From positions 148,342 to 212,341 of the forward strand of contig JBGTBY010000031.1 in assembly GCA_041749075.1 (NCBI GenBank): 64,000 bases of DNA. The letters run 5' to 3'. This stretch comes from Balneolales bacterium (GTDB lineage: Bacteria; Bacteroidota; Rhodothermia; Balneolales; HLUCCA01). Position 1 is the first letter of the stretch. Each line of letters opens with the position of its first letter. The translations under genes were made by a program, and so were the position numbers. Shown here piece after piece: positions 3,226 through 59,234 of the stretch. The notes beneath the pieces were generated by a model. The model did not search any database. It saw only the letters and a list, made by a program, of their open reading frames with translations, and had not been told where the DNA came from.

Positions 3226-3346
3226 TAGAGGAAAACGTTAAAATGGTGGAATATGTCTGGCCTGTGAGGTCGTGGCCATTTATGGAAAGACAACAAAAAT
3301 AGCATATTTATTCCTAAATTAGAAGTCTCTACAAATCCTTTTTTTC

Positions 3347-6300: not shown

Positions 6301-6622
6301 GTTCCAGAACTTGGTTGGCGTGATGAATGAGGAAATCATCGGATTGTTGTGGAAGGCGGTTCCGGAAGGAAGCGGCCAACCCGGCAGACCCGTGGCTCCG
6401 CAACGCAAGTTGGATATGAGTCGCCTCAAAACGCGTCATGACAGTTCAGAAGGCATGGGCATCAAGTTCGACGCGCCATCCACATCCGGCAATAAACCGC
6501 CGGCGACAGGTGGACAAGCCCCGAAATTGGCTCCGATCCATGTTGGACCAAAAGTGGGTCGCAACGATCCATGTCCGTGCGGCTCCGGTAAGAAGTATAA
6601 GAACTGCCACGGCGCGGCATGA
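3347..6622 (+). CDS. secA: Preprotein translocase ATPase SecA
   Basis: 1091 aa. Contains [20 protein letters not shown] and [12 protein letters not shown]-terminal zinc-binding tail [14 protein letters not shown]. Confidence 0.97.
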
Positions 6623-12309: not shown

Positions 12310-12618
12310 ATGGCACAAACCTTCTTCGAAGAAATCAACGTCACCGGCAAAGACCTTCTCAAGCGCATCAAAAAATTGATCAAAGAAGGCAATGTGCGCC
12401 GACTCATCATCAAGAACAAAAAAGGTGACAAACTTCTCGAAATGCCCCTTACCATGGGTGCGGCGAGTCTGGGTGGGATGATGATTTTAACGCCGTTTCT
12501 GTCTGCGATTTCCTTCATCGCGTTGATGGTGACCGAAGCCACTATATTGGTCGAGCGCGATGCGAAAGCCGATCCGAATGAAGTGGAAGTGGATGATATT
12601 GAGATCGTGGAAGAGTAG
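12310..12618 (+). CDS. DUF4342 domain protein
   Basis: 102 aa. KDLLKRIKKLIKEGNVRRLIIKNKKGDKLLEMPL pattern plus a hydrophobic segment. AGGAG lies 9 nt upstream of the ATG. Confidence 0.7.
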   Translation: MAQTFFEEINVTGKDLLKRIKKLIKEGNVRRLIIKNKKGDKLLEMPLTMGAASLGGMMILTPFLSAISFIALMVTEATILVERDAKADPNEVEVDDIEIVEE

Positions 12619-12765
12619 TTAAAGCGTTAAAGCGTTAAAGCGTGAAAACGTGGAGGTGTAGAAGTGTTGGAGAATTCTTCACATTTTTACGCTTTCACGT
12701 TTTTACGTTTTAACACCTATACATTTTAACGCTTTCACGTTTTCACATTTCTACACAAAAAAGTC
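12619..12765. repeat. Gene-less word palindrome filling the whole intergenic spacer
   Basis: TTAAAGCG x3 plus TGAAAACG at 12619-12650. Centre GAATTC at 12672-12677. The right arm is built from the complementary words (CGCTTTCAC, CGTTTTAAC, CACGTTTTCAC). Confidence 0.6.
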
Positions 12766-43668: not shown

Positions 43669-45401
43669 GATAGAACCTCCGATAACTGAGCGATGATATG
43701 ATTCACCACTTGCTGCTCTCGTGCGATGTCTTTGCGTGAGGCGACCGGCGCAAAGCGGATTGTGCTACAGGTATCGAACACGCGTTTCGTTTCGGATATG
43801 ATCTGAGCGGACACGCCGGCGTTGGTCATGGCATCGAGCAGTTGGGAGTCGTTCAAGCCGGCTTCAGGAAGTCCGAGTTTGTCGCAGATAAACCCGCTCA
43901 ATGCGGAGTAGAGAATGCTGTAAGTGGTTTTCACGTCCTGTTCGGATGTGATTCCGGCCAATTTCGATACAGCCCGTTCTTTTGCTTTTGTTTTGCGGAA
44001 GAATCCATAATCATTGGTCAATTTGTCTCGGTTCTGTTTGTCGCGATGCGCAACAGCAACCGCAACAAAAGGAAGGATCAACAACACCCAGAACCACCAG
44101 GCGCGAAGTGCTGAAAAGGAGCTTCGTTGAATCCAAGGCGTGGCGACTAAGATAGGAACCATGCTGAACGGATTGTCGCTGGAATAGGATAGGGATGTGT
44201 TCACATCCCGGTTCACGGTGATGGAAATGGATGCGAGATTCGTGACCTGGTATCGGTTCCGATCCGGATTGAACACGGCGATCTCTGCGGCCGGCAACGT
44301 GTAGGAACCGCCACGCCGCGCGATGATCACATCCCGAAAGGTGCGCGTGCCGGTCAGCGCATTGGCCGTAGGAGCCAATTTGAGATCTTCAGACGGCTGA
44401 TAGGTCTCGAACCCTTCTGGCAATTGGAATTGAGGTTTGGCGATGAGAGCCAGGTTTCCGGTTCCGGAGATTTCGGTGATCAGCTCGATGGCCTCACCGA
44501 CGCTCACCACCGGATTGGATACACGACGGGTGATTTGAAAATCACCCACGGCATTAATGGAGGTTCCGGTTTCGGGTTCCGGCAACGAGCGGATTCGCAG
44601 GGGGGTCGCGTCGGTCGTCAAATCGACGGTGCGCTGGTTGCCGAAGAAAACATTAAAGGGGTCCTGATATCGACCGGCAGTTCGAACCGTTAAGGTAACG
44701 GGCTGTTCACCAATTGTCAACTCTCCGCTGCGATTTGGAAACAAAGCATGTTTGGCCAACACGGCTCTGCGGTAGCGTTCGCCTCTCAAGACAACTTGCT
44801 CGGCTACTGGCGGACTCCCATCCCCCAACGATTCCTTCCAGTACCCATCCGTGCGCCAGCTGTTCGCTACCACAAATTGGGTGATGTCGATGGTAGGCTT
44901 GTAGTACAATACCAGTTCGGCCAAGATCTGTTCTCCAACAACTGGACGTGTTTTGCTGAGCTCCATCCGAACATACAATTCGGGGGATGTTGCCGCATCG
45001 GCCGCATCCCGCTCCGTGACGGTTATGCTGAAGGAATTGGTCAGGTAATCGCGTCCATCCACCGATACAGAAAACGTGGGGATGGTTACAGAACCTACAC
45101 GATCGGCCTGATAGGTGTAGGTGAAGGTGTAGCTGCGGCTGGCAACGCCATTCACAAAGCTATAATTGGTGGATGTCGACGGTTGAGCGCTTTGAAGTAC
45201 CACACCAGGGATGCCTGGCAAGGTTGGACGAGTGACATTCCGAAAATTGCTGCCTTTGATTTCGATGCTCAGCGCAAAGCGGTCGCCGCGTTTCACGGAG
45301 CGTTCGTTGGTCGATGCCGTAATGGTGATGTCATCTTGAGCCGAACCCATCACTGGCAGCACCATCATCAGAAGGGCGATCAGCTTACCAATCTTTCGCA
45401 T
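43665..45401 (-). CDS. batD: BatD-family (oxygen-tolerance) protein
   Basis: 578 aa. Signal peptide, a large extracytoplasmic region, then a TM segment (WWFWVLLILPFVAVAVA) and a cytoplasmic tail, which is the BatD architecture. Confidence 0.6.
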   Translation of the reverse strand: MRKIGKLIALLMMVLPVMGSAQDDITITASTNERSVKRGDRFALSIEIKGSNFRNVTRPTLPGIPGVVLQSAQPSTSTNYSFVNGVASRSYTFTYTYQADRVGSVTIPTFSVSVDGRDYLTNSFSITVTERDAADAATSPELYVRMELSKTRPVVGEQILAELVLYYKPTIDITQFVVANSWRTDGYWKESLGDGSPPVAEQVVLRGERYRRAVLAKHALFPNRSGELTIGEQPVTLTVRTAGRYQDPFNVFFGNQRTVDLTTDATPLRIRSLPEPETGTSINAVGDFQITRRVSNPVVSVGEAIELITEISGTGNLALIAKPQFQLPEGFETYQPSEDLKLAPTANALTGTRTFRDVIIARRGGSYTLPAAEIAVFNPDRNRYQVTNLASISITVNRDVNTSLSYSSDNPFSMVPILVATPWIQRSSFSALRAWWFWVLLILPFVAVAVAHRDKQNRDKLTNDYGFFRKTKAKERAVSKLAGITSEQDVKTTYSILYSALSGFICDKLGLPEAGLNDSQLLDAMTNAGVSAQIISETKRVFDTCSTIRFAPVASRKDIAREQQVVNHIIAQLSEVLS

Positions 45402-46077
45402 GGCGCGTGCGTGGTGGAATTTGCTTTTTCTGATATTCTTTGAGCAGTTCTTTCTCTTTGTTTTCCAAGGCGTTGAGAATCTGTTCGGCTTCTTTCTGAC
45501 TCATTTCACCTTCTTGTGGCCGACCCTGCTCATTCTGGTTCTGCTGATTCTCATTTCCTTGTTGCTGCTGGCCTTGCTGCTCGTTGTTCTGGTTCTGCTC
45601 GTTCTGATCGTTTTGATCCTGCTCCTTTTGCTCGTCGTCGCCTTGCTGTGATTGGGGGTTTTGAGGCGGCTCGGTCATCCGGCGTTGCACCAGCTCGTAA
45701 TTGTATTGGGCTTGTGGGTCGTCGGGCGCGGCACGTAGCGATTCGCGGTAGCGTTCCATGGCTTTGGCCCATTGCTCTTGCAGTCCGTGGATGTTGCCGA
45801 TGTTGTAATCGGCCGCGGCACGATCGCTCGGATCTGAAGACATCGATTTGAATTGCTCGAACGCGGAACGGGCTTCATCAAACTTCCCTTGGCGGGTGAG
45901 CGCGTTACCCAGGTTGAAGTACAATCTTGCATCGTTTGGTGATACGAGTAAGGCTTCACGATAGCCTTTTTCGGCCGTAGCAAAATCACCCCGGTCGTAG
46001 GCTTCATTCGCCTTGCGGGCACCATCCGTAGCGGACGATAGCAGAAACAACAACATCAAAACGACGGATTTCATCAA
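45385..46077 (-). CDS. BatC-like TPR protein with Q/N/E-rich low-complexity tail
   Basis: TPR repeats (YREALLVSPNDARLYFNLGNAL). Tail QNPQSQQGDDEQKEQDQNDQNEQNQNNEQQGQQQQGNENQQNQNEQ. Confidence 0.55.
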   Translation of the reverse strand: MMKSVVLMLLFLLSSATDGARKANEAYDRGDFATAEKGYREALLVSPNDARLYFNLGNALTRQGKFDEARSAFEQFKSMSSDPSDRAAADYNIGNIHGLQEQWAKAMERYRESLRAAPDDPQAQYNYELVQRRMTEPPQNPQSQQGDDEQKEQDQNDQNEQNQNNEQQGQQQQGNENQQNQNEQGRPQEGEMSQKEAEQILNALENKEKELLKEYQKKQIPPRTRHAKDW

Positions 46078-46921: not shown

Positions 46922-48064
46922 ATGAATATTGGAATCGTCGGCTACCCAACCTATGGCGGCAGTGGTGTCGTCGCAACCGAACTAAGCAAAGGTCTCGCCA
47001 CGCGCGGACATAAAGTCCATTTTCTGAGCTATGCTCGACCGCAACGGCTCGATGCCTTCAATACGAACATCATGTTCCATGAAGTCACCGTCAACGCCTA
47101 TCCGTTGTTCGAATTTCCCCCGTACGATTTGGCCTTGGCCAGCCATATGGTGAACCTGATCGAGCACGAAAAGTTGGATCTCCTGCATGTGCATTACGCG
47201 ATTCCGCACACGACGAGTGCCTATTTGGCCAAGCAGATCATGGGGGACAGGGCCAAGCGCGTACCGATCATCACGACTCTTCACGGTACCGACATCACCA
47301 TCGTGGGCAGCGATCCGAGTTATCTGCCCGTCGTGAATTTCTCCATCAACCAGAGCGATGGGGTCACGGCTGTCTCCGATTATTTGCGGGATGAGACCTA
47401 TGCGCGGTTCGACATCCACAATGAAATCGAAGTGATTCCGAATTTTGTGAACCTGGATGTGTTCAAGCGCAGCGACAAATCCCATTTCCGCAAAGCCATC
47501 TGCAACGATGATGAAATGATCGTGACACATGTGTCCAATTTCCGGAAAGTGAAACGCGTGGAAGATGTGGTCAAAACCTTCGCGTATTTGCGTCATCATG
47601 GCGTGAAAGCCAAACTACTGATGCTAGGCGACGGACCCGAGCGTATTCCGCTCGAAGCCTTATGTCGTGAGCTGGGCGTCTGTGACGACACCCGTTTCCT
47701 CGGCAAACAGGACAATGTGGAAGAAATCCTGTCGGTTACCGATCTCTTTCTGATGCCGTCCGGCTCCGAAACCTTCGGACTTGCCGCACTCGAAGCCATG
47801 AGTTGCAGCGTGCCGGTGATCAGCTCGGATGTGGGCGGATTGCCCGAACTCAACCGCGACGGCGTTACAGGTTATGTCTGCGCCTTGGGCGATACCGATG
47901 CCATGGGCGCCGCAGCCGTGAAGATGCTCACCGACAAAACCCTGCATGCGAGAATGGCCCAAGCCGCTCGCGCCCGCGCCGAAGACTTCGAACAGGAAAA
48001 AGTCATCGCGCAGTATGAGGCGTATTATATGAAGGTGCTGAAGAAGCTGGATGCAAGAAGCTAG
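46922..48064 (+). CDS. bshA: GT4 glycosyltransferase, BshA-like (N-acetyl-alpha-D-glucosaminyl L-malate synthase)
   Basis: MNIGIVGYPTYGGSGVVATELSKGLATRGHKVHF and EXFGLAALEAMSCSVPVI. Confidence 0.7.
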   Translation: MNIGIVGYPTYGGSGVVATELSKGLATRGHKVHFLSYARPQRLDAFNTNIMFHEVTVNAYPLFEFPPYDLALASHMVNLIEHEKLDLLHVHYAIPHTTSAYLAKQIMGDRAKRVPIITTLHGTDITIVGSDPSYLPVVNFSINQSDGVTAVSDYLRDETYARFDIHNEIEVIPNFVNLDVFKRSDKSHFRKAICNDDEMIVTHVSNFRKVKRVEDVVKTFAYLRHHGVKAKLLMLGDGPERIPLEALCRELGVCDDTRFLGKQDNVEEILSVTDLFLMPSGSETFGLAALEAMSCSVPVISSDVGGLPELNRDGVTGYVCALGDTDAMGAAAVKMLTDKTLHARMAQAARARAEDFEQEKVIAQYEAYYMKVLKKLDARS

Positions 48065-48077
48065 ATGCGGGATGGTA

Positions 48078-48094
48078 GATGCGGGATGCGAAGA
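48078..48094. repeat. 17-bp perfect inverted repeat, left arm (bounds a 2-kb three-gene segment)
   Basis: gatgcgggatgcgaaga is the reverse complement of 50056-50072. Preceded by a partial tandem copy agatgcgggatgg starting at the bshA stop. Confidence 0.85.
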
Positions 48095-48129
48095 ACCCCC
48101 ATCTTTATCTTATTATTTTCCTGAATTCT

Positions 48130-49035
48130 ATGAAATTGTTCAACATTGCCATCCCAATGTTCAGCGTGCTGCTGAGTTGCTCATCTGTCATGAAAGACAC
48201 GGATGATGTTGTATTTCCTGAGTTGTATCCCATCCATGGCGAAACACAGGTCGTGGATGCGCCACGGACCTACAAAGGATTGGATTTGACGTTGACCAAC
48301 AATGGCATCCCAACAATCTCTGCAAATGACAGCATCATTGGTGTCGTCTGCATCGGAATGAGTAATGCCGCTCAGGAATGTGATCGATACATTCTTGCCG
48401 CTCAAACGGTGTTTGCAGGTGAGGTCAACCCCGATGTACGCATTGTCAATTGCGCACTCGCGAGCCATGCCATTGAGCGATGGAACGACCCTGCATATGA
48501 CACGGCACTTTGGACCCGCTGCACAGATCTGATTTCAGAGGCAGGGCTCTCACTTTCCGATATCCAGGTTGTTTTGCATAAAGCAGCGAATCAGTACACG
48601 ATTGGTCCAAATCAGCAACCGCTGCCGTATTACCCCAATCCGGATAGTGACTTTTTTAAATTCAAAACCAACCTGACCACATTTGCAGAGCGAGTCACAG
48701 CTTTCTTTCCTGAATTGAAAGCTGTTTATACAACGTCACGCAGTTATGGTGGTTTTTCAAACCGTCCCGAAAGAGGGGAGCCACTCAGTTATGAAGAAGG
48801 GCATGCGCTAAACCAATGGTTGCTTGAGAATGGCTCAGTGAACGGAGTCTGGTTCGGTTGGGGACCCTACATCTGGGCTCCGGAATGCAGCACGGGGATT
48901 AAAAACGGACTTGGGTATTGTTATGACCGGCAAGATTATTCACAAGACGCTGTTCATCCGTTGCCCGCTGGAGAAGTGAAAATCGCAAAAATGTGGCACG
49001 CGAGACTTTCTCAGCACGCGTGGTACAGACGTTGA
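48130..49035 (+). CDS. Lipoprotein, possibly SGNH/GDSL-like hydrolase
   Basis: Start moved to MKLFNIAIPMFSVLLSCSS. VVCIGMSNA (block-I-like Ser) and C-terminal QDAVHP (DxxH-like). Weak assignment. Confidence 0.35.
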   Translation: MKLFNIAIPMFSVLLSCSSVMKDTDDVVFPELYPIHGETQVVDAPRTYKGLDLTLTNNGIPTISANDSIIGVVCIGMSNAAQECDRYILAAQTVFAGEVNPDVRIVNCALASHAIERWNDPAYDTALWTRCTDLISEAGLSLSDIQVVLHKAANQYTIGPNQQPLPYYPNPDSDFFKFKTNLTTFAERVTAFFPELKAVYTTSRSYGGFSNRPERGEPLSYEEGHALNQWLLENGSVNGVWFGWGPYIWAPECSTGIKNGLGYCYDRQDYSQDAVHPLPAGEVKIAKMWHARLSQHAWYRR

Positions 49036-49041
49036 TTTTGT

Positions 49042-49728
49042 CTACAGAAGTGTCTCCCTCGGCGCATCTTGATCGTAATTGCCTTGGTGAGGACGAGAAA
49101 CCAACTCACTTACAGACCCATAGCGGTAATACTGTTTAGCGAATGCGATGAATTCGGCGATTGGAAGTCGGTTGATGTCTTTCTGTTGGAATCCCTGATT
49201 CATCTTGAAATTTGACATCTCGGTCATGAAAACGTTGAAATCATCCCATAATGTGCTTGGACTGCTTGCTATATCAACCCCGTTTTCGACCAACCAGCTC
49301 CTCAATTTATGAATGAGCTCTTCTGACTCGTCCTGATGGCATTTGCAATCTGTGAATGACAGGTCGGACAGTGCTTTCTGAGTGCTATATCGTTCGGCCT
49401 CTAAAATGAGGAATCGCTTTTGCCTATGCTTGGCTTCGACATGGTATAATCGGCATCCGAGATCTAGTCCTAACTCAAAAGGCATGTTGAAACGGTAATA
49501 CTCGCCTGAATCTTTCGATTTGACCCGGCTCAGGTCATGTATCGAATACATCGATCCTTCGATCAATTCTTTGATTTTATCGAGTCGCACTTCTGCCGCA
49601 TTGTTTCGTTCCATCGCGATGCGGGGTTCAAAGCCGATTGCAATCAACGTATGCAAAAGAGGTTTTAGCAGGGGGGCGTATTCATCATCAAAAGGGCAGT
49701 TGATGAACACACTGCGTTCATAGGGCAT
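49042..49728 (-). CDS. TIR-like / nucleoside 2-deoxyribosyltransferase-like domain protein
   Basis: N-terminus SVFINCPFDDEYAPLLKPLLHTLIAIGFEP plus NMPFELGLDLG (conserved Glu context of NDT/TIR-like folds). The C-terminal ~90 aa are unrecognised. Confidence 0.45.
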   Translation of the reverse strand: MPYERSVFINCPFDDEYAPLLKPLLHTLIAIGFEPRIAMERNNAAEVRLDKIKELIEGSMYSIHDLSRVKSKDSGEYYRFNMPFELGLDLGCRLYHVEAKHRQKRFLILEAERYSTQKALSDLSFTDCKCHQDESEELIHKLRSWLVENGVDIASSPSTLWDDFNVFMTEMSNFKMNQGFQQKDINRLPIAEFIAFAKQYYRYGSVSELVSRPHQGNYDQDAPRETLL

Positions 49729-49731
49729 CGT

Positions 49732-49950
49732 TTATTTTTTTGCCTTCAACCACATCTCAACCGACCCATCAGAAGCGTGAATGACGAGATCGGCACCACT
49801 TCGCTTTGTCATGGTTCGTGCATGAGTGATAGCGGATTCTTTTGTATCGAATACTTTCGCGGCACGCTGAGCCCCTTCATTCTTCAAGGCCCAACCGGAT
49901 CCTCGTTTTATGATGTGAGCACGTGGCGGTCGGGTTTTGCTATCTGACAT
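49732..49950 (-). CDS. DUF2188 domain protein
   Basis: Internal start MSDSKTRPPRAHIIKRGSGWALKNEGAQRAAKVFDTKESAITHARTMTKRSGADLVIHASDGSV. The upstream part of the track ORF runs into repeat-like sequence. Confidence 0.65.
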   Translation of the reverse strand: MSDSKTRPPRAHIIKRGSGWALKNEGAQRAAKVFDTKESAITHARTMTKRSGADLVIHASDGSVEMWLKAKK

Positions 49951-50055
49951 GGTTATTCTGGGTAGAAATGGATATATGGAATCTACAACTTCACCACATA
50001 TTGACCCAAATAATCCATTCCTAAATTTGGCATTTAGGAACAATAAGTTATGTGG

Positions 50056-50072
50056 TCTTCGCATCCCGCATC
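50056..50072. repeat. 17-bp perfect inverted repeat, right arm
   Basis: tcttcgcatcccgcatc. Embedded in ACAATAAGTTATGTGGTCTTCGCATCC, which resembles the right end of the TGTCCGCAAG elements. Ends a few nt before the stop codon of the next gene (50079-50081). Confidence 0.85.
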
Positions 50073-50078
50073 CCGCTT

Positions 50079-51191
50079 CTACAGCACCCCTTCCATGGTT
50101 TCTTTGATCAACTGATCCACCACGGCTTTTGGGTCGTTGGTGGAATAAAAGCAGGCGAGTTGACGATCGGATGAGGTCCCATGCCGCAAGATTCTATGAA
50201 TCACTGCGATTTCCTCGCGAGCACCGATATCATCCACCACATCATCCACGAAACTCAACAGTTCGAAGATGAGCGCGCGGGCGTCGACTTCTTTCTTCTT
50301 CCCGAGGTCGAGCAACTTCCCATCCAGTCCCCATCGAACCGCACGCCATTTGTTTTCTTGGATGAGTTCTTTGCGATAGACGCGCCAACTCATGTTATTG
50401 CGACGCAGTTTCAGGAGTTTGGCTACAAGCGCCACTTTCAAAGCGCAGATAGCGATGGCTTCGTCGAGGCGGGTCACTACGTCAGTTATGCGGAACTCTA
50501 GGGTTGGGTAGCGTGGCGACGGACGCAGGTCCCAGCGGATTTTGGTTGGATCATCGAAACAATTCGTTGAGATGGCCACATCCAGATATTCCATATAATC
50601 GCCCCAAGAACGCAGTGTGGGCGGAATTCCAGTACGAGGAAGCGCCTCGAACACGACAGAGCGGTACGATTTGAGTCCGGTGTCGTACCCATCCCAGAAA
50701 GGGGAGCTGGTGGACAAAGCAAGCAAGTGCGGACAAAAATAGCTTAACTGGTTCATCAAATCGATGCGCAGGTCGTTGTCCTCGATTCCCACATGCAGGT
50801 GCATGCCGCAAATGAGCAATTGCCGGGCCAGAACCTTGTTTTCGAGCACCAATCCTTCATAACGGGTGCGTTCGGTGATGGACTGATTTGTCCATTTCGA
50901 AAAGGGATGGGTGCCGCACGCGATGATGTTGAGTCCGTGCTCTTGCGCGATTTCGTGCACCGTTCTGCGGGCATACTTGAGTTGATCGTGCGCCTCTTGA
51001 ATGGACGTGCAGATCGGCGTGCCCACCTCCACCTGACATTGGAGCATTTCGGTGGTGATCGTATTTCCCATTTTGTCCTTTCCGTCTTTCAGAAAGAATT
51101 CCACCGCCGAACTGAGTTCGCCGGTTTTGGGATCAACGATCATGTACTCTTCTTCAACGCCGATGGTGAAGGATGTGGTTGGTTTTGCCAT
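50079..51191 (-). CDS. ybdK: Carboxylate-amine ligase, YbdK / GCS2 family
   Basis: FTIGVEEEYMIVD, LQCQVEVGT, GMHLHVGI. Start probably MAKPTTSF (the ORF extends to 51227). Confidence 0.85.
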   Translation of the reverse strand: MAKPTTSFTIGVEEEYMIVDPKTGELSSAVEFFLKDGKDKMGNTITTEMLQCQVEVGTPICTSIQEAHDQLKYARRTVHEIAQEHGLNIIACGTHPFSKWTNQSITERTRYEGLVLENKVLARQLLICGMHLHVGIEDNDLRIDLMNQLSYFCPHLLALSTSSPFWDGYDTGLKSYRSVVFEALPRTGIPPTLRSWGDYMEYLDVAISTNCFDDPTKIRWDLRPSPRYPTLEFRITDVVTRLDEAIAICALKVALVAKLLKLRRNNMSWRVYRKELIQENKWRAVRWGLDGKLLDLGKKKEVDARALIFELLSFVDDVVDDIGAREEIAVIHRILRHGTSSDRQLACFYSTNDPKAVVDQLIKETMEGVL

Positions 51192-51339
51192 AATGCGGGA
51201 AAGTACATCACGGGGATGTGATTTCAATCAGAAAATAGGTGGCGGGATGATTTTTTAAGAATAATCTTCTTCCGGTTGTAACAAATGCAGGGTCTCGTGA
51301 TCATAGGAGAGTGGTACTTAACACAAGAAGCATACACGT

Positions 51340-51726
51340 ATGAACAATCGTCATTCTACGATGTTGGTCCCGGAGCTACTGGTATTAAACAAGCACCTGC
51401 ATAAGATTCGAACTGTCAGCGAATGGGCTAGAAATTGCTGTATTTCTGAATCTAGTTTGAACAAGCGAATAAATACAATACTAGGCACTTCGCCCAAAAT
51501 TGTTCTTCGCGAGTTAAGGTTTGAAGTGATATGTTCGTTGATTAGAGAACAGGGTTTGCAAGCTACAAGTCAAGGGGTGGCGATTGATTCTGGCTTAGGA
51601 ATCCGTAGCAATGATCTTTACAAATTCTTGTCGATCTACTATGGAACGACGTTCACGCGCTTGAGATATGAGATAATAAGTGGAATGTATACCCCAAAGT
51701 TAAACAGGCTTGGAGATTTGGAATGA
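51340..51726 (+). CDS. Stand-alone AraC-type HTH regulator
   Basis: 128 aa. TVSEWARNCCISESSLNKRINTILGTSPKIVLRELRFEVICSLI resembles one AraC HTH unit. Confidence 0.5.
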   Translation: MNNRHSTMLVPELLVLNKHLHKIRTVSEWARNCCISESSLNKRINTILGTSPKIVLRELRFEVICSLIREQGLQATSQGVAIDSGLGIRSNDLYKFLSIYYGTTFTRLRYEIISGMYTPKLNRLGDLE

Positions 51727-52373
51727 TCCAGTCGTGGTTTGACCGAGTCGCCGGTTGGCAGCTGTATCTGATGGTCACATCTTTCTATCTCGGGTTGGTG
51801 TTCTTCTCGCAACAGTTTTTGTTCACAGATGAGCTCGTCCGAAACCAACTTTCGGAAATCTACCCAGCCTACATGATTCAAGATGTGTTAGAGTTGAGAA
51901 GCCGATTTTGGTGGGTCGGATATGTATTAGAACCGATCATTCTCTTCCTGAAGTTGCTTTTGTTTTTTTTGCCGGTCAGTGTTCTGGCTCTGTTATCTGA
52001 TTTGAATTATTCACCAAGGGATATTTTCAAAGCCGCTTTATTTGCCGAATTCGCATTCTTCATACAGCGTTTTTGGTATACGGCTCTTAGCTCAAAGCAC
52101 ACTGACAAATTATTTGATAGTACAATCATTGATCTTTACCCCTTAAGTCTGATTGGAATATTAGGATCCCGAAATGTGGTTCACTGGCTGGTCTATCCAC
52201 TGCAGACTATCAACATCTTTGAGATGATTTTCATCGTGATCACTAGTTGGTTTTTGTCAAGGTGCTGGAGCATGGGGTTTGCAACAACCTTGAATCTGGT
52301 GCTACCCGCCTATCTGATCGGTCTAGTTCTTTGGATGGGCTTTGTTGTATTTGTCACTATTCAGTTAATTTGA
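51723..52373 (+). CDS. Polytopic membrane protein (Yip1-like?), bacteriocin-locus associated
   Basis: 216 aa with about 5 TM segments. Overlaps the upstream stop. No firm family. Confidence 0.45.
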   Translation: MIQSWFDRVAGWQLYLMVTSFYLGLVFFSQQFLFTDELVRNQLSEIYPAYMIQDVLELRSRFWWVGYVLEPIILFLKLLLFFLPVSVLALLSDLNYSPRDIFKAALFAEFAFFIQRFWYTALSSKHTDKLFDSTIIDLYPLSLIGILGSRNVVHWLVYPLQTINIFEMIFIVITSWFLSRCWSMGFATTLNLVLPAYLIGLVLWMGFVVFVTIQLI

Positions 52374-52374
52374 C

Positions 52375-54585
52375 ATGTCATTTTCAATAGATAAGGCTAT
52401 CCGGAACGCTTGGGTTCGGCAAGAGGATCAAAATGACTGTGGCGTAGCCTGTTTGAAATCCATCATCTCGTTTTACAACGGTGATGCCGATCTAGAGTCC
52501 TTGCGCCGTGCATCGGGTACGAGCCGAACTGGCACAACAATGTTGGGCTTATATCAAGCCGCGCCGAAATTCGGTCTTATTGCGGAGGCCTATGAGGCCG
52601 ATATTGAAAATCTCGCAAAACAGACGGAGCCATGTATCCTTCATGTAGTTAAAAACAAGATACTTTTGCACTATATCGTTTGCTATGGGTTCAACGGAAC
52701 TGGATTTATCATTAGCGACCCTGCTGATGGTATAACCGTATTGTCCTCGAGTGAACTAGAAACGATCTGGCAGAGCAGAGCGCTTTTACTTTTAAAAAAG
52801 TCTGATTCGTTTGTCGTGGTTTCTGAAAAGCGGAACCACCGACTAAAATGGTTGTGGAACTTGGCAGAACAAGATGTCAATATATTATCGGTCGCCCTCA
52901 TGCTTGGTCTGGTTATAGCCATCCTTGGTCTGGCTTCAGCAATTTTTACTCAGAAGCTTATTGACGTATTCCTACCTGAGAAACAATTGTTATTGCTGGT
53001 TACTGGGCTTTCATTGATGACCTTTTTATTGTTAGCGCGATCTTTCCTTAGCCGCATTCGGATGTTTTTCCTAATTCGCCAAAGCCGAGGTTTCAATAAC
53101 CGTATGATTGGTCGATTTTATGGTTCTCTGATGCGATTGCCATTCGAGTTTTTCTCCGGACGTAAGACAGGAGATCTAATTGCCCGGATGAATGACACCC
53201 AGCGACTCCAAACAACAATCACATATCTGTTCGGAGACGTGATCATCGATGGGTTGATTATTATCGTTTCCGCAGCATTCGTAGCCTATTATTCGTCACA
53301 TCTTGCAATCTTGTTAATTGCTGCTATTCCAATTTTTATGGCAATTACATGGCGCTTTAACAAGCCTGTTAGGGATGGACAGATTGCCGTGATGCAGGCT
53401 CATGCAATGACTGAAAGTCAATATATGGATACAATTCAAGGGATAGAGGCTATTAAGGGGTCTGGGAAGGAATCCACATTCACAGAGCTTACGCTTAACG
53501 TATATCAGCACTTTCAACAAATGCGTTTTGAACTTGGCAGAGTTGGTATTCGTTTTCAATTCTTGAACGAAGTGGTCGGTATTGGGTTCATGACCGCGCT
53601 ATTTGGTCTTGGTTCATGGATGGTTTTAGAGAACACCCTACAACTCGGGGCATTAATGGCACTCATCCAAATGGGATCTCAACTCTTACCGGCGGCCTCA
53701 CGCCTGTCCATGACCAACCTAAGAATACAAGAAGCCAAGGTAGCTTTCGATCGGATGTATGCATTCACCTCTTTGGAATCTGAACAACCAGAATCGGTGC
53801 AAAGGGGAGTTCGATCAGAAGTGGATCAAGCCAAACAGCCGATCACCAGCTTGCACCTTGAGAACATAACTTTTCGATTTCCAGGTCGCAAGGCCTTGTT
53901 AGAGGATGTAAATCTTGAGGTACATAAGGGCGAAATGATTGGGATTCTTGGAGAGAGTGGATCGGGAAAGACAACTCTGCTTCAATTGATAGAGAGGCTT
54001 TATCCGGTAGAATCAGGACGGATTTGTATAAACGAATCTATTTCAGCCGAATCGATTCCATTGTCGGATTGGCGTCGGACTGTGGGGGTGGTTCCTCAGC
54101 AGGTCAAGATCTTCAACACCGGTTTGCTGCAAAATGTTGCTGTGGACAACGTCGAAGGAGAAGCTGATGTGCATCGTCTTATCGGGTTTTGCAAAGAAGT
54201 TGGTCTTCATGAATTAGTTATGCGATTCCCTCAGGGATATGCAACCTTATTGGGCGAGGAAGGTGTTAATATTTCAGGTGGACAGCGTCAGCTCGTTGGG
54301 TTGGCAAGAGCCCTATATTCAGGACCGAAAATATTGTTGCTTGATGAGGCCACGTCTGCAATGGATCGAATCACAGAGCGCATGGTTTTGGGGCTACTGG
54401 AACATCAACTGGAACACATGGCCATGATTTGGGTCACTCACAGGATCCACACCCTGAGTGAATGTGATAGGATTTATATACTTGATCAGGGTCGGATTCA
54501 GGACCAAGGCACTGCGACTTCACTGATGGAGCGTGAGAATAGCTATTCGCAAGCTGTTCGAGAGATTCGGAGTTTGCTTAAATAA
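52375..54585 (+). CDS. Peptidase-C39-domain ABC transporter (double-glycine leader cleaving bacteriocin exporter)
   Basis: C39 motif QEDQNDCGVACLKSIISFYNG and HYIVCYG. 6-TM ABC membrane domain. Walker A GESGSGKTT, signature ISGGQRQ, Walker B ILLLDEATS. Confidence 0.9.
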   Translation: MSFSIDKAIRNAWVRQEDQNDCGVACLKSIISFYNGDADLESLRRASGTSRTGTTMLGLYQAAPKFGLIAEAYEADIENLAKQTEPCILHVVKNKILLHYIVCYGFNGTGFIISDPADGITVLSSSELETIWQSRALLLLKKSDSFVVVSEKRNHRLKWLWNLAEQDVNILSVALMLGLVIAILGLASAIFTQKLIDVFLPEKQLLLLVTGLSLMTFLLLARSFLSRIRMFFLIRQSRGFNNRMIGRFYGSLMRLPFEFFSGRKTGDLIARMNDTQRLQTTITYLFGDVIIDGLIIIVSAAFVAYYSSHLAILLIAAIPIFMAITWRFNKPVRDGQIAVMQAHAMTESQYMDTIQGIEAIKGSGKESTFTELTLNVYQHFQQMRFELGRVGIRFQFLNEVVGIGFMTALFGLGSWMVLENTLQLGALMALIQMGSQLLPAASRLSMTNLRIQEAKVAFDRMYAFTSLESEQPESVQRGVRSEVDQAKQPITSLHLENITFRFPGRKALLEDVNLEVHKGEMIGILGESGSGKTTLLQLIERLYPVESGRICINESISAESIPLSDWRRTVGVVPQQVKIFNTGLLQNVAVDNVEGEADVHRLIGFCKEVGLHELVMRFPQGYATLLGEEGVNISGGQRQLVGLARALYSGPKILLLDEATSAMDRITERMVLGLLEHQLEHMAMIWVTHRIHTLSECDRIYILDQGRIQDQGTATSLMERENSYSQAVREIRSLLK

Positions 54586-54599
54586 GTTGTATCGAAATG

Positions 54600-54644
54600 G
54601 GAGACAGATTTACTGATTTTGGAGACAATCAGGAATTGGGGACA
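54600..54644 (+). promoter_or_regulatory. Three direct repeats GGAGACA / GGAGACA / GGGGACA upstream of the peptide genes
   Basis: Copies start at 54600, 54621 and 54638 (21- and 17-nt spacing), 70-115 nt upstream of the ATG at 54715. Candidate regulator-binding array. Confidence 0.3.
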
Positions 54645-54714
54645 ACTATTTTTGGATTTATACTAGACTAATCGATTAGGTTCAATAATTAATTATCAAA
54701 ATAAGTACGTAAAT

Positions 54715-54918
54715 ATGAATACACTAAATTTCTCCCAAATGGAAGAACTCTCTGGTGGAGATTCTAATGTGAAAGCTCTGGGATTCACATGTGGTTATGC
54801 TACAGGCGTAGCAATTGTTGTAGCAGGTTTTCTAACCGGTGGTCTTGCATGGTTTGTTGGTGGAATGATCGCTGGTCCCACCTGTATTGCTGCAATTGCT
54901 TACACTGCAAGTAACTAA
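54715..54918 (+). CDS. Double-glycine-leader peptide 1 (class II bacteriocin-like precursor)
   Basis: MNTLNFSQMEELSGG | DSNVKALGFTCGYATGVAIVVAGFLTGGLAWFVGGMIAGPTCIAAIAYTASN. 15-aa GG leader, then a Gly-rich hydrophobic 52-aa core with GxxxG motifs and 2 Cys. Confidence 0.75.
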   Translation: MNTLNFSQMEELSGGDSNVKALGFTCGYATGVAIVVAGFLTGGLAWFVGGMIAGPTCIAAIAYTASN

Positions 54919-54932
54919 AAAGAGGAATTACT

Positions 54933-55130
54933 ATGAAAAGTTTAACAACTCAGAATATGATAAGTCTTGAGGCCGGAAGTTGGTGGGACTTAGTCGATTC
55001 AGCTTGTGCCGGATATGCATTAGTGGTAGGATTAACGTACGGCGCTGTAATTGCAAACCCAGTGGGTGGGGCAATTGGTGCAGGTTGTGCTATTCGAGGT
55101 GCTTATGTTGTGCTGGATAGTATAAAATAA
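54933..55130 (+). CDS. Double-glycine-type leader peptide 2 (class II bacteriocin-like precursor)
   Basis: MKSLTTQNMISLEAG | SWWDLVDSACAGYALVVGLTYGAVIANPVGGAIGAGCAIRGAYVVLDSIK. 15-aa leader ending AG, a core with GxxxG motifs and 2 Cys. AGAGGA lies 7 nt upstream of the ATG. Confidence 0.7.
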   Translation: MKSLTTQNMISLEAGSWWDLVDSACAGYALVVGLTYGAVIANPVGGAIGAGCAIRGAYVVLDSIK

Positions 55131-55154
55131 CTTCGAATTGACCGAATATGCGAT

Positions 55155-55832
55155 ATGTGGGGCGTATATTTAGTGAATACCCCAATTATCGTAACTGACT
55201 TGTTTCGACACTACATTGCTAACCTATTTTCGACTCAGGAACAAAGATACTACATCCTTCTTTTGTTCCTGATCGTCGATTTGCCACTTTTCGTTGTGGC
55301 TGTTTCGATGGGGTATGGCGTTGCCTCGGTACTGGGTCAACATTCCCTGCATCATGGGCTGATGTGGCTATCCCTATTCGCCTTTCTTTCGATTGGACAA
55401 GGAATCTTCCTGAAGCCCGCATCCATCAATCTTCAGCCCTATTTGCTGTTGCCCATTACTCGGACCAAGTTATTCATCTATGCCCTAATTCCGGTCATGT
55501 GCGATCGAAGCGGCGTGTTTGTGTTTCTATTACTTGGCAGCTTGACATGGTTTGATCCATCCATGAGTCCGTTCATGAAAATCCTGCTATTCACCGGACT
55601 CATTCCTTTCATCACCCTCTCAAGCATCTATACCTATTTCGTCCAACATCTTAAGGGGCTCAACAAAACCTATCTCATAATCCCGGTTCTGATTGTCATC
55701 CTCATCGGTTGGATGTGGATACAACCACTAACGATTCACCCACTATTGGTGATCGTCACCCTATCTTTTCCCCTTCCTATCGTGATCAAAGCCTTGTCGA
55801 CAACCATGTTTTATGTAAGCACGGATCGATGA
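55155..55832 (+). CDS. Polytopic membrane protein (putative immunity / ABC permease component)
   Basis: 225 aa with about 6 TM segments. Followed by a second membrane protein and an ABC ATPase with ATGA-type overlaps. Confidence 0.5.
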   Translation: MWGVYLVNTPIIVTDLFRHYIANLFSTQEQRYYILLLFLIVDLPLFVVAVSMGYGVASVLGQHSLHHGLMWLSLFAFLSIGQGIFLKPASINLQPYLLLPITRTKLFIYALIPVMCDRSGVFVFLLLGSLTWFDPSMSPFMKILLFTGLIPFITLSSIYTYFVQHLKGLNKTYLIIPVLIVILIGWMWIQPLTIHPLLVIVTLSFPLPIVIKALSTTMFYVSTDR

Positions 55833-56542
55833 AAACGAACTCCATCTCTTATTTGATCTGGATGGTGTTTCGTCGCACCGCTCGGGCGAAATACCTGCCT
55901 TGGGGAGCATTCTTTTACTGTTTGTTCGGGTTTTCAGCCTTGTATACCGGACTAGTGAAAAATGAGTGGTTTTTTGTAAGCATCGGCTATACGATAGGAA
56001 GCATCTCAGTAGGTCTCATGATCGTGCTGCATGTGTTACGACTTTTGAGTGTGAGTTTTGATGGGATTCTGGTCTGGCCGATCTCGTCTCAAGACCTGTT
56101 GAAAGGAGTGAACCGTGTAGCCCAGATGATCACTATTGGCTTATACACTCCAGCAATGCTACTGGTCATTTACTATAATGCATCCATCCTTCCGCATTTT
56201 CTTGCTGCGATGCTGTTCAGCTTGTTTGTGGTACAACCCGTTTACATCCGATTGATGCTGTTCGAAACGAATCGGTATGATGTGACTAAGGGGATGTTCG
56301 CGACGGGTGATGCGATGGTATCCAGACCCTTCCTCAATAACCTGGCCACGATCGGATTTGCGGGGTTGTGCATTGGTCTGAGCTGGCTCGCTTCCCAAGC
56401 AGATCTTTTAAATGTTCTATGGCTTTTCTTTGCCATTTTCGGAGGAATTGGCCTGCTACTATCTTCATCCATCCATCGCAACGAAGTCACAACATTTCAA
56501 ACCAATCGATACGTCATCGCCAACGGATTCAGAAAAAAATGA
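55829..56542 (+). CDS. Polytopic membrane protein (putative immunity / ABC permease component)
   Basis: Start moved to MKTNSISYLIWMVFRR, which overlaps the upstream stop. About 6 TM segments. Confidence 0.5.
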   Translation: MKTNSISYLIWMVFRRTARAKYLPWGAFFYCLFGFSALYTGLVKNEWFFVSIGYTIGSISVGLMIVLHVLRLLSVSFDGILVWPISSQDLLKGVNRVAQMITIGLYTPAMLLVIYYNASILPHFLAAMLFSLFVVQPVYIRLMLFETNRYDVTKGMFATGDAMVSRPFLNNLATIGFAGLCIGLSWLASQADLLNVLWLFFAIFGGIGLLLSSSIHRNEVTTFQTNRYVIANGFRKK

Positions 56543-57231
56543 CCATTCAGATCAAGAAGCTTCGAAAAACCTATGGTACGTTTGAATGCTCGGTGGATGA
56601 ATTGTTCATCGAATCCGGCCAAACCATCAAACTATATGGCAACAACGGCGCTGGAAAAACAACACTTTTGCGTTTGCTACTGAATCTGATACCAGCGGAT
56701 GGGGGCGACATACTTGTAGATGGGATGTCGGTCGTCAACGACTTCGATTGGCGAAAAAAGACTGCAGCTTATCTGGATGAGGGATTTCAAATTCCTTTCC
56801 TGACAGTAGACGAATACCTGCGATTTCTGCTGGATGTGTATGGATGTCATGTTCCAGCCGAGTTGAATCTGCATCAAACCCATGGTGGATTGATCGATCA
56901 GGATTTCGACACATCCGTCCGTGTTGGGAAATTGTCTGCCGGAAATCGGGTGAAGGCGGGTTTGCTGGGCGTGTTTATCGTCACACCATCGTTACTTGTG
57001 CTGGATGAACCCTTTGCTCATTTGGATCCGCGATCGAAAGCCGGACTCATTTCGCTTATCGATAGTTATCGACACGAACATCCCGCCGCGACCATCCTCC
57101 TCTCCAGTCACGACATCAGCATCACGAATCGGATTTCAGGACGAAATCTTGTGATGAGGAAAGGTCAGATCATCTATGATGGGTTGGATCATGAAAAGAG
57201 TGCGTCCGAAATCGAAGCTCTTCTGATGTGA
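56539..57231 (+). CDS. ABC transporter ATP-binding protein
   Basis: Start moved to MTIQIKKLRKTYG. Walker A GNNGAGKTT, signature LSAGNRVK, Walker B LLVLDEPFAHLD. Confidence 0.85.
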   Translation: MTIQIKKLRKTYGTFECSVDELFIESGQTIKLYGNNGAGKTTLLRLLLNLIPADGGDILVDGMSVVNDFDWRKKTAAYLDEGFQIPFLTVDEYLRFLLDVYGCHVPAELNLHQTHGGLIDQDFDTSVRVGKLSAGNRVKAGLLGVFIVTPSLLVLDEPFAHLDPRSKAGLISLIDSYRHEHPAATILLSSHDISITNRISGRNLVMRKGQIIYDGLDHEKSASEIEALLM

Positions 57232-57274
57232 AAAGTCGCTTGGCGTTTTCTAACTTCAAGAAAAAATTGACGCC

Positions 57275-58585
57275 ATGAAGCCCATTCTCCTTCTTTTTCT
57301 GACTCTTTTTTCGGTCGAGACCTTACAATCGCAGATTCTGAGCCTCCGCGACCAAGCCGCGTGGCGCGATTCCATCCTCGAAAAACGACTGACCTTGTTG
57401 TTGCCCGATCTGATGGAGCGCGCATCGATCGATGTATGGGTGATCATCGGAGCCGAGTACAATGAGGATCCCGTTCTGAAAACAATGCTTCCGGCCACAT
57501 GGCTCAATGCCAGAAGAACCACGATGTTGGTGATTGCGAAAAACCGCGTGACTGGCGCCATCGACCGCCTCGCTGTGGCGCGATATGATGTTGGTAGAAG
57601 TTTCAAGTCCGCTTGGAACCCCGATACCCATCCCGATCAATTCAAGCGACTGGCCGAACTTATATCCAGTTACCAGCCCGAGCGCATCGGCATCAATACG
57701 TCGCTTCATTTCGATCATGCGAATGGAATCACATTTACCGAGCATGCCCGAATGATGTCGGCCTTGCCCGAAGCCCTGCGTCGAAAAGTGGTCAGCGCAG
57801 AGGCCTTGGCTGTCGGATGGCTCGAAACTCGGATACCGGATGAACTCACGATGTATGCCCATATCAACGAAACGGCTCATGCCATTTTGGAACGGGCGCT
57901 ATCGAATGAAGTCGTGATTCCAGATTCCACCACCACCACCGAGGTGCAATGGTGGCTTCGCGAAACGGTACGCTCGATGGGGCTGGATGTGTGGTTCCAC
58001 CCAAGTGTAAGCGTGCAGCGTGGCGAGGCTCCGGAGCACGCGGGCGATTTCTCAGCGAAGCCGGGGGAAGAGGTGATCCGCCGCGGAGATCTGATGCATA
58101 TCGATTTCGGTATCACGTATTTGGGTCTGAACACCGACACGCAACGTATGGCCTATGTTCTCAAAGATGGAGAGTCGGAAATCCCAGCCGGATTGGTGGC
58201 GGCATTCAAGAAAGGGAACCGGTTGCAGGACATCCTGACGGGGAATTTCGTGACGGGTCGGCCAGGAAATGAGGTGTTGAAGCGCTCACGCGATCAAGCC
58301 ATCGCCGAAGGGCTGAGGCCTAGCATCTACACTCATCCCATTGGATTTCATGGTCATGCAGCCGGAGCCACCATCGGCATGTGGGATGCCCAAGGCGGCG
58401 TACCAGGCGATGGCGATTATCCCGTTTACCCGAATGCGTGTTGGAGCATCGAGCTGAACGTGACGGAGCAGATCGCCGAATGGGGGAAGGATGTGAGAAT
58501 CATGCTCGAGGAAGATGCGTGTTTTGATGGAAGAACGGTACGCTACATCGCGGGGCGGCAGGAATCTATATACATCATTCGGTGA
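57275..58585 (+). CDS. M24-family metallopeptidase (Xaa-Pro aminopeptidase-like) with signal peptide
   Basis: MKPILLLFLTLFSVETLQSQ signal. GDLMHIDFGITYLGLNTDTQR and HPIGFHGHAAG. Confidence 0.75.
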   Translation: MKPILLLFLTLFSVETLQSQILSLRDQAAWRDSILEKRLTLLLPDLMERASIDVWVIIGAEYNEDPVLKTMLPATWLNARRTTMLVIAKNRVTGAIDRLAVARYDVGRSFKSAWNPDTHPDQFKRLAELISSYQPERIGINTSLHFDHANGITFTEHARMMSALPEALRRKVVSAEALAVGWLETRIPDELTMYAHINETAHAILERALSNEVVIPDSTTTTEVQWWLRETVRSMGLDVWFHPSVSVQRGEAPEHAGDFSAKPGEEVIRRGDLMHIDFGITYLGLNTDTQRMAYVLKDGESEIPAGLVAAFKKGNRLQDILTGNFVTGRPGNEVLKRSRDQAIAEGLRPSIYTHPIGFHGHAAGATIGMWDAQGGVPGDGDYPVYPNACWSIELNVTEQIAEWGKDVRIMLEEDACFDGRTVRYIAGRQESIYIIR

Positions 58586-58616
58586 AGGTCTCGACGCCCT
58601 CGGCCACTCCCGTTCA

Positions 58617-58711
58617 TAAAGACAGATCGAGTTTTGCGGCGCTTCGATTAACCCACCCCCTGCCCCTCCCTACTCGTCAACGCTTCGCGTTTCCTCGCAA
58701 GGAGGGGTGAT
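58617..58711. repeat. ~95-bp imperfect inverted repeat, left arm (flanks the DUF559 gene)
   Basis: Perfect cores: acccaccccctgcccctccct (58651-58671) pairs with 59176-59196, and tcgcaaggaggggtgat (58695-58711) pairs with 59136-59152. Outer taaagaca pairs with tgtcttta. Confidence 0.85.
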
Positions 58712-58766
58712 TAACTTTAGGAACGATTCTTTTTGCTTGGGTCGTAGCGAAGCTTGAGATTTCCCT

Positions 58767-59162
58767 ATGGGAAACACGAATCGCAAATGGCGTTTTGCCA
58801 GGGAACTTCGCAGAAACATGACGCCTCATGAAAGGCGGTTATGGCAACATCTGCGCAAAGGGCGGATAGAGGATTATCGCTTTCTACGACAATATGTGGT
58901 CTCTTTTGAGGAAAGAACCGACGGGGCTTGGTTCTTCATATTGGACTTTTACTGCCCGGAAGTCCGCCTCGGAATCGAATTGGATGGGAAATATCACCGC
59001 TTTCAGCTAGAGTATGATAATTGGCGAGATGCCCTCATCCGCTCGAAAAATATCCGAATACTTCGATTCGAGAATTCCGAGCTACTAAATCTGGAACACG
59101 TTATTTCTCAAATCTCTGCGTCATTAAATGAGCAGATCACCCCTCCTTGCGAGCCCGAGTGA
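58767..59162 (+). CDS. DUF559 (Vsr-like endonuclease fold) domain protein
   Basis: RELRRNMTPHERRLWQHLRKGRIEDYRFLRQY...DFYCPEVRLGIELDGKYH. Confidence 0.85.
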   Translation: MGNTNRKWRFARELRRNMTPHERRLWQHLRKGRIEDYRFLRQYVVSFEERTDGAWFFILDFYCPEVRLGIELDGKYHRFQLEYDNWRDALIRSKNIRILRFENSELLNLEHVISQISASLNEQITPPCEPE

Positions 59163-59230
59163 AACGAGGGGTCGGAGGGAGGGGCAGGGGGTGGGTCCAC
59201 CGACGCGAAGCACAACTCGAAGTGTCTTTA
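59136..59230. repeat. ~95-bp imperfect inverted repeat, right arm
   Basis: Reverse complement aligns with 58617-58711. The inner 27 nt overlap the DUF559 C-terminal codons (ITPPCEPE*). Confidence 0.85.
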
Positions 59231-59234
59231 AGCC

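Follow-up and report, generated by a model that had tools for sequence, protein, structure and literature searches.

Among described systems, those closest to the locus reported here are the bacteroidetocins of the Bacteroidota, for which a class of their own, IIf, has been proposed (Coyne et al., 2019, PMC6671954; Matano et al., 2021, PMC8546649). Bacteroidetocin loci encode a transmembrane (TM) protein, a peptide and an ABC transporter with a peptidase domain (PCAT), in most cases together with a thiol oxidoreductase, and contain no HlyD-type or outer-membrane partner; toxin activity is weakened when the gene for the TM protein, for the oxidoreductase or for the peptide is deleted, the four genes are enough in E. 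coli, and the authors already ask by what route the peptide crosses the outer membrane (PMC6671954). Class II bacteriocin-like precursors of the Bacteroidota have also been predicted in bulk, with 4,494 unique sequences (PMC12648112), and we found no description of a two-peptide system from this phylum in the literature searched. Here we describe an islet of eight close-packed genes, all on the plus strand, at positions 51340-57231 of a 64-kb stretch of DNA from a Balneolales bacterium (contig JBGTBY010000031.1; the whole stretch is called the window below, and coordinates refer to it unless a related locus is named). On a comparative basis as far as function is concerned, this islet is probably a self-contained secreted-peptide toxin cassette of the bacteriocin or microcin type, built on the bacteroidetocin export chassis of the Bacteroidota. 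We favor this reading because the expected domains and motifs are intact, the leaders of the peptides are conserved, a locus in Fodinibius salipaludis contains every islet part, a homologue of the membrane protein encoded beside the exporter occupies the same place in all nine related loci counted, and the genetics of bacteroidetocins are as outlined above.

The islet comprises the following open reading frames (ORFs) and associated features:

51340-51726, plus strand: ORF1, a short AraC/XylS-type helix-turn-helix (HTH) protein of 128 aa, with a match to Pfam HTH_18
51723-52373, plus strand: ORF2 (TM5), a 216-aa membrane protein with about five helices, putative accessory partner of the exporter
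52375-54585, plus strand: ORF3 (PCAT), 736 aa, peptidase-containing ABC transporter
54593-54654, plus strand: triple direct repeat and TATTTTTG box, candidate operator/promoter of the peptide operon
54715-54918, plus strand: pepA, a 67-aa precursor with a 15-aa leader ending in GG and a 52-aa core
54933-55130, plus strand: pepB, a 65-aa precursor with a 15-aa leader ending in AG and a 50-aa core
55155-55832, plus strand: memb1, a 225-aa polytopic membrane protein
55829-56542, plus strand: memb2, a 237-aa polytopic membrane protein, like the C-terminal half of DUF5687
56539-57231, plus strand: ABC ATPase, 230 aa, ABC_tran, candidate subunit of an immunity transporter
51208-57243, no strand assigned: the accessory islet as a whole, a 6,036-bp insertion relative to close relatives

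Relative to a program-made ORF list, the starts of memb2 and the ATPase gene were corrected to the ATGs at 55829 and 56539, since these overlap the preceding stop codons as ATGA. Such overlaps are found at three junctions (ORF1/TM5, memb1/memb2 and memb2/ATPase), and both corrected starts match independent gene calls on sister contigs. The spacing between pepA and pepB is 14 nt. A preliminary description of this DNA had given the same gene order and sizes, which the ORF calls and Pfam confirm, and had seen no HlyD-type or outer-membrane gene at the locus; none is present among the eight ORFs of the islet, all of which are accounted for, the rest of the window not having been screened. That description took the missing partner for a peculiarity, but it is typical of bacteroidetocin loci and the documented norm in the phylum (PMC6671954). 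The islet also has no thiol oxidoreductase gene, and no homologue of the thioredoxin-fold (Trx) gene of its relatives occurs within the 64-kb window.

In layout, as judged from sequence, the islet corresponds to the bacteroidetocin type. Both cluster GG-leader peptides (15-aa leader; two or more Cys in a core about 42-52 aa long) with a multi-helix TM protein beside the PCAT, without a HlyD-type membrane fusion protein (MFP) or outer-membrane factor, and the type is known from several classes of the phylum. The cargo differs, in a comparison by description only: that of the islet is Gly/Ala-rich and strongly hydrophobic, has two Cys, and consists of two differing peptides kept as a pair. The islet also has a three-gene ABC module that may confer immunity, whereas Bacteroides producers lack an immunity gene and kill themselves, and it has a short AraC-type regulator and no oxidoreductase, which is present in most, not all, bacteroidetocin loci.

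ORF3 contains the three parts by which a PCAT is recognized, namely an N-terminal C39 domain with its catalytic triad, an ABC exporter domain of six helices and a nucleotide-binding domain. Pfam matches were obtained to Peptidase_C39 (E 3.4e-33), ABC_membrane (5.5e-29) and ABC_tran (1.4e-28); the triad is intact (Cys22, His99 and Asp115), as are Walker A and B, the signature and the H-loop. The protein aligns over its full length to the solved PCAT1 (4RY2; E 4.8e-95) and also to ComA, and its match to TIGR01193 (E 1.8e-116, 390 bits) is short of the 524-bit cut-off. Its closest named homologues (49-55% identity) belong to Balneolales, namely Balneolales bacterium ANBcel1, Fodinibius/Aliifodinibius and Gracilimonas, with Cytophagales (Cyclobacteriaceae, Roseivirga and Arcicella) next. 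An FCB-type (Fibrobacterota-Chlorobiota-Bacteroidota) host, as proposed in the preliminary description, is thus plausible, given that the close PCAT relatives are all from Balneolales or Cytophagales and that the neighboring genes include BatD and a 23S_rRNA_IVP protein. In the closest relative in our genome collection, an Arcicella metagenome-assembled genome (L001, 7001-9148), the PCAT gene is split into several frames, possibly as an assembly or polishing artefact or as a pseudogene.

TM5, encoded directly before the exporter, gave no Pfam or NCBIfam match, has no sequence relatives in the PDB and none in the plasmids of PLSDB. Its AlphaFold model is all-helical, with about five long helices, at low confidence (pLDDT 59.7, from a two-sequence alignment), and a word-indexed homologue search returned one relative at 51% identity beyond the window. 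Genomic context was read in ten related loci, with TM5 and Trx counted over nine. A TM5 homologue stands directly upstream of the PCAT gene, or of Trx and PCAT, in all nine (26-51% identity; tblastn E 1e-12 to 5e-64), and in six of these the thioredoxin-fold gene lies between the two. Similarity can further be followed in a transitive chain from the TM5 of the window to an Arcicella TM protein (E 1e-15) and from there to one of Roseivirga (E 5e-6).

The two precursors carry leaders of the double-glycine type, MNTLNFSQMEELSGG in pepA and MKSLTTQNMISLEAG in pepB, in which L-12, M-7 and L-4 are followed by GG (pepA) or AG (pepB), and cleavage is predicted after these residues. Leaders of this type are about 15 aa long, have hydrophobic residues at -4, -7 and -12 and G-G, G-A, G-S or A-G at -2/-1, and are encoded close to a PCAT. 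Across 14 peptides from eight loci the leader classes M-15, L-12, M/L-7, I/L/F-4 and G-1 are invariant, and in an alignment with the pepB orthologue of F. salipaludis (L012) that leader ends in GG where pepB of the window has AG. A regular expression for the leader, run over all six frames of the window, matched the pepA and pepB ORFs only. The core of pepA (52 aa, 5.07 kDa) is Gly/Ala-rich and hydrophobic, with Cys11 and Cys42, and that of pepB (50 aa, 4.98 kDa) is likewise hydrophobic, with Cys10 and Cys37. Both have a GRAVY (grand average of hydropathy) of about 1.0 and two hydrophobic segments, with net charges of 0 (pepA) and -1 (pepB) and pI values of 5.8 and 4.4. These data agree with the preliminary description as to precursor and leader lengths, leader ends and the two Cys per peptide, and the leaders, PCAT triad and domain content likewise uphold its view of a double-glycine-leader peptide export locus of the bacteriocin type. 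It had also stressed GxxxG motifs in both cores. They are present, four in pepA and two in pepB, but they exceed the number expected from composition in pepA (1.3; P=0.019) and not significantly in pepB (1.05; P=0.28). One GxxxG (precursor G38-G42) is invariant across the pepA family.

Relatives of pepA are rare. Orthologues were found in L012 (47% identity) and as P0124 (59%) and P0125 (45%), all with both Cys invariant; at 50% identity the family amounts to three clusters in the 1.84 billion representatives searched, where exhaustive HMMER with pepA found only two real relatives, while a word-indexed search with pepA gave nothing beyond the window itself. For pepB, the L012 orthologue shares 52% identity (E 4e-19) and a B-like peptide occurs in L096, and a metagenome scan with the pepB alignment produced no relative. 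BLASTP gave no alignment between pepA and pepB, and cross-matches appeared only with composition correction off, so paralogy of the two is unproven. The leader models named for comparison in the preliminary description, PF10439 (Bacteriocin_IIc) and TIGR01847, matched neither peptide at E values up to 10, nor did TIGR03949 (lactobin A/cerein 7B). Sub-threshold similarities were seen between pepA and PF17508 MccV (E 0.058, 14.4 bits against a cut-off of 27), an Arcicella peptide and PF10439 (E 2e-4, 21.6 bits against 27.1), a peptide of L010 and TIGR03949 (E 0.025), and, over the leader only, the L012 B-type peptide and TIGR04149, a Bacteroidota family of GG-leader radical SAM (rSAM) targets (E 0.008).

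In class IIb bacteriocins both peptides are needed in about equal amounts for activity, and the peptides are cationic, amphiphilic, 30-50 aa long and contain GxxxG. The islet resembles the class IIb systems of Firmicutes (lactococcin G, plantaricin EF/JK, lactacin F) in that two small genes lie side by side in an operon and encode peptides with GG-type leaders and GxxxG motifs, and in having a PCAT of its own and a putative self-protection function nearby. It differs from them in that its cores are slightly longer and not cationic, do not match PF10439 or TIGR03949 at threshold, would be countered by a candidate ABC pump rather than a small immunity protein, and belong to a diderm host; moreover, the A-type peptide is found alone in one relative (L095). 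The class IIb hallmark that the preliminary description saw in the pair is therefore not borne out, in view of the missing family match, the charge of the cores, the GxxxG enrichment confined to pepA and the solitary A-type peptide. With class II microcins (microcin V/CvaC with CvaAB-TolC) the islet shares a diderm producer, a 15-aa GG leader, a PCAT exporter and Gly-rich, hydrophobic, non-cationic peptides, here predicted to be unmodified and to have a disulfide. Unlike those systems, it has TM5 and no membrane fusion protein and a candidate ABC pump in place of a small inner-membrane immunity protein, and its MccV match (PF17508) is under the family cut-off, which places it outside that family. 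The export side matches the bacteroidetocin type, and the cargo has no more than a broad likeness to class IIb bacteriocins and class II microcins.

The related loci give the reading its comparative base. That of F. salipaludis (L012) contains every part of the islet plus a thioredoxin, in the order HTH, pepA, pepB, memb1, memb2, ATPase, TM5, Trx, PCAT, with identities to the window of 47% for pepA, 52% for pepB, 28% for memb2 (E 3e-32), 42% for the ATPase, 36% for TM5 and 51% for PCAT. Because these homologous parts come in permuted order, the cassette can be described, by sequence comparison, as two permuted modules, one with cargo and pump and the other for export. An A-like/B-like peptide pair occurs in L096 as well. 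In Aliifodinibius L095, a single A-type peptide lies directly upstream of a DUF5687 gene and an ATPase gene, and no B-type ORF was found. L097 contains several GG-leader peptides, all unrelated and each followed by a membrane protein of its own, and other related loci have differing Gly-rich, 2-Cys GG-leader peptides with a small membrane protein after each. The recurrent order of a GG-leader peptide followed by a small membrane protein or ABC module fits the classical toxin-plus-immunity layout. In a Roseivirga metagenome contig (L098, 4672-5091), the same TM-plus-PCAT chassis accompanies two hydrophilic 4-Cys peptides with GG/GS leaders and a 294-aa protein without family match; the export module therefore handles cargo of very different classes. 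An origin of the locus by chance or artefact was rejected, since its conservation extends to independent assemblies.

Downstream of the peptide genes lie memb1, memb2 and the ATPase gene. The ATPase matches Pfam ABC_tran (E 4.3e-18), has Walker A, an LSAG signature and Walker B, and is 42% and 37% identical to the ATPases of L012 and L095. Hydropathy analysis of memb1 showed 6-7 hydrophobic segments; the protein has no Pfam match and weak similarity to memb1 of L012 (E 0.003). For memb2, we obtained a match to Pfam DUF5687 (PF18940) at positions 265-484 of its 484-position profile (E 3e-5, 24 bits against a cut-off of 33) and 28.5% identity (E 3e-32) to its L012 homologue. In L095, a full-length 447-aa DUF5687 protein and then the ATPase come after the A-type peptide. 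Because that protein occupies the equivalent place, we read memb1 and memb2 as a split DUF5687-like permease, with memb1 probably its N-terminal half, judging from its position and its combined length with memb2. When profiles of memb1 and memb2 were compared with that of the full-length L095 protein (hhalign), the result was not significant, and we found no mention of DUF5687 in the literature searched. By position and analogy, memb1, memb2 and the ATPase may form a self-protection pump. Like the ABC immunity pumps LanFEG and As-48 EFGH, the module combines an ATPase with polytopic permease subunits directly downstream of the peptide genes; unlike them, its permease would be of a split DUF5687-like kind with no characterised member, in a role suggested by position.

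Only one regulatory gene is present in the islet, the short AraC-type ORF1, with no histidine kinase or response regulator. Its match to Pfam HTH_18 (E 3.6e-6, residues 29-105) is under the curated cut-off, and its size is about that of MarA, SoxS and similar single-domain activators of the AraC family. Seven related loci (L010, L011, L012, L013, L095, L096 and L097) begin with a homologous short HTH_18 gene. Ahead of pepA, the units GGAGACA (54600), GGAGACA (54621) and GGGGACA (54638) form a triple repeat, the third unit being followed by the TATTTTTG box. The pattern GGNGACA-N14-GGNGACA occurs once in the window and in none of 100 shuffles. TANNTTTG by itself is not enriched in the window, and scans for sigma-70 promoters and terminators remained at background level. 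In L009 (3732-3772), GAAATAGGCGACA is present twice, with the 21-nt period of the window and likewise upstream of peptide genes, so that GGNGACA-containing direct repeats of this period precede the peptide genes in two diverged loci. ORF1 is a candidate regulator of the locus, probably binding the triple repeat at 54600-54644.

The boundaries of the islet are given by close relatives that lack it. In L015, which was found together with L016 by a metagenome scan with the downstream M24 peptidase, blastn aligned 2327-3454 to window 50080-51207 and 3459-4781 to window 57244-58566, so that 4 nt replace the 6,036 bp of the window (51208-57243). L016 likewise has an empty site, and in both relatives the upstream GCS2 gene and the downstream M24 peptidase gene are adjacent; the proteins of L015 are 81-96% identical to those of the window. 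In composition, the islet has a GC content of 0.444 against 0.512 in the rest of the window and is its lowest-GC 6-kb stretch (non-overlapping stretches: mean 0.510, sd 0.016, minimum 0.471). The shift persists in GC at third codon positions (GC3), which is 0.25-0.55 across islet genes (PCAT 0.446; peptide genes 0.25 and 0.29) as against 0.53-0.68 in the genes around it. Among the related cassettes, compared over 10 loci, six exceed their flanks in AT content and two more differ little from theirs.

In another relative, L006, the islet is 97% identical to that of the window, as compared with 87-91% for the flanks, and is bracketed by a 47-nt imperfect direct repeat (6467-6513 and 12702-12748) with a 19-nt perfect core, ATGCGGGAAAGTACATCGC. 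The 47-nt repeat takes in the 5' end of the GCS2 gene and sequence upstream of it. The ATGCGGGAAAGTACATCGC repeat is present in one copy in the empty-site L015, and the counterparts of the two L006 sites in the window are 51181-51227 and 57231-57244, with the right-hand copy deleted. On the basis of the exact empty sites, the low GC and GC3, the L006 repeats and the difference in identity between islet and flanks, the islet is an accessory, exchangeable unit of horizontal origin, by gain or exchange. The simplest reading is gain, and loss in the relatives by recombination between the repeats is a possible alternative. In showing presence and absence with exact boundaries, a distinct composition and flanking repeats, the islet has the marks of a horizontally acquired one, and the preliminary description, which from spot counts of GC had judged the islet AT-richer and consistent with horizontal acquisition, is supported on these points. 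No recombinase gene lies in the islet, and the window has no tRNA genes or Rfam families; there is therefore no tRNA-linked integration site.

Several further differences were observed around the islet. Between the ABC ATPase and M24 peptidase genes, L006 has a small membrane ORF of about 68 aa on the minus strand (about 12520-12715), within 216 nt that correspond to 13 nt in the window, where the ORF is lost. On the other side of GCS2, window 48051-50079 is a second strain-variable segment (GC 0.44-0.48) with 318-aa, 228-aa and DUF2188 ORFs; it is missing in L015, and L006 and L007 have a PIN-domain toxin-antitoxin pair and a 301-aa ORF instead. A third indel within 12 kb is window 58567-59234, a DUF559 (endonuclease-like) gene between the M24 peptidase gene and sucC, which is absent in L015 and of different length in L006. 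Farther upstream, window 45250-46000 shows a strong negative AT skew (-0.40 to -0.48), unlike the rest of the window, over a minus-strand gene for a TPR protein.

Taken as a toxin cassette, the islet could work as follows. Control of the peptide operon would fall to ORF1, probably acting on the triple repeat at 54600-54644, and pepA and pepB would be made as precursors with the 15-aa double-glycine-type leaders seen in their sequences. By homology to PCAT1 and ComA, the exporter is expected to cleave after GG15 and AG15 and to pump the cores, of 52 and 50 aa, through the inner membrane, and TM5 may aid production, as the equivalent TM protein does in bacteroidetocin loci. Each core could acquire one disulfide between its two invariant Cys, presumably by way of general machinery or air oxidation; most related loci encode a dedicated thioredoxin-fold protein. 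Once released, the peptides, probably jointly, would attack the envelope of related bacteria. By its position, and by analogy, the module of memb1, memb2 and ATPase would act as an ABC-2-like pump expelling the hydrophobic peptides from the membrane of the producer.

Several points weigh against this reading. With their neutral or acidic charge and strong hydrophobicity, the cores depart from typical class II bacteriocins, which are cationic; pepA and pepB reach no curated bacteriocin family threshold (PF10439, TIGR03949, PF17508 or TIGR04149), and a sequence search found no relatives of either among PDB structures. The DUF5687 assignment is sub-threshold, and the profile comparison with the L095 protein was not significant. 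TM5 is a putative homologue of the bacteroidetocin TM accessory protein on the basis of locus architecture and transitive similarity. Finally, we infer the immunity role, the operator and the disulfides, and toxin activity is predicted both here and in the close homologues.

Within the toxin reading, the two peptides might depend on each other or act separately. We consider it unlikely that pepA and pepB form an obligate two-peptide toxin, which would be the first class IIb-like one in a diderm, exported by PCAT and TM5 without an MFP or TolC and countered by a split DUF5687-type pump. Two independent one-peptide bacteriocins sharing an exporter and an immunity pump, a sub-variant of the toxin explanation, are a minority possibility that we take seriously. 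The A-type peptide alone upstream of DUF5687 and ATPase genes in Aliifodinibius L095, the several unrelated GG-leader peptides of L097, each with its own downstream membrane protein, and the lack of GxxxG enrichment in pepB all suggest such independence. It is harder to reconcile with the adjacency of A-type and B-type peptides, in an order that the window and Fodinibius share although the sequences have diverged, with the A-like/B-like pair of L096, and with the single module that serves both peptides and the gap of just 14 nt between their genes.

The peptides might also not be toxins at all, being instead exported signals, or membrane-resident small proteins for which the leader is an export tag, with the ABC module handling or recycling them. 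Pheromones, ComC for one, are also exported by PCATs, the best structural matches of the islet PCAT include ComA, and cores that each have two hydrophobic segments and lack a net positive charge would suit signalling or membrane residence. We nevertheless regard this as improbable: the islet has neither a histidine kinase nor a response regulator, known GG-leader pheromones are much shorter than its 50-52-aa cores, the pairs of peptide and downstream membrane protein in related loci fit toxin and immunity, and variation between strains together with horizontal exchange is what antagonism loci typically show. It is very improbable that pepA and pepB are precursors of peptides made by the ribosome and modified after translation (RiPPs) with tailoring enzymes encoded elsewhere in the genome. 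The weak, sub-threshold TIGR04149 match to the leader of the L012 B-type peptide points that way; against it, no RiPP-modifying enzyme was found in the islet or in the related cassettes examined, where the thioredoxin-fold protein is the sole maturation gene, and the islet moves between strains as a unit without modifying genes.

Bacteroidota peptide toxins have so far consisted of a few gut examples and bulk predictions. What is new here is the conserved hydrophobic peptide pair, the candidate ABC immunity module, and a cleanly bounded islet with natural empty-site relatives. These data show that the same TM-protein and PCAT chassis carries widely differing cargo, among it two hydrophobic, Gly-rich peptides conserved as a pair, and that in some cassettes the ABC module may supply the immunity that characterised bacteroidetocin producers lack. 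If that role is true, DUF5687 would gain an annotation, its first function. Natural, isogenic-like strains with and without the islet offer a direct way to test self-protection, synergy between the peptides and their passage across the outer membrane.

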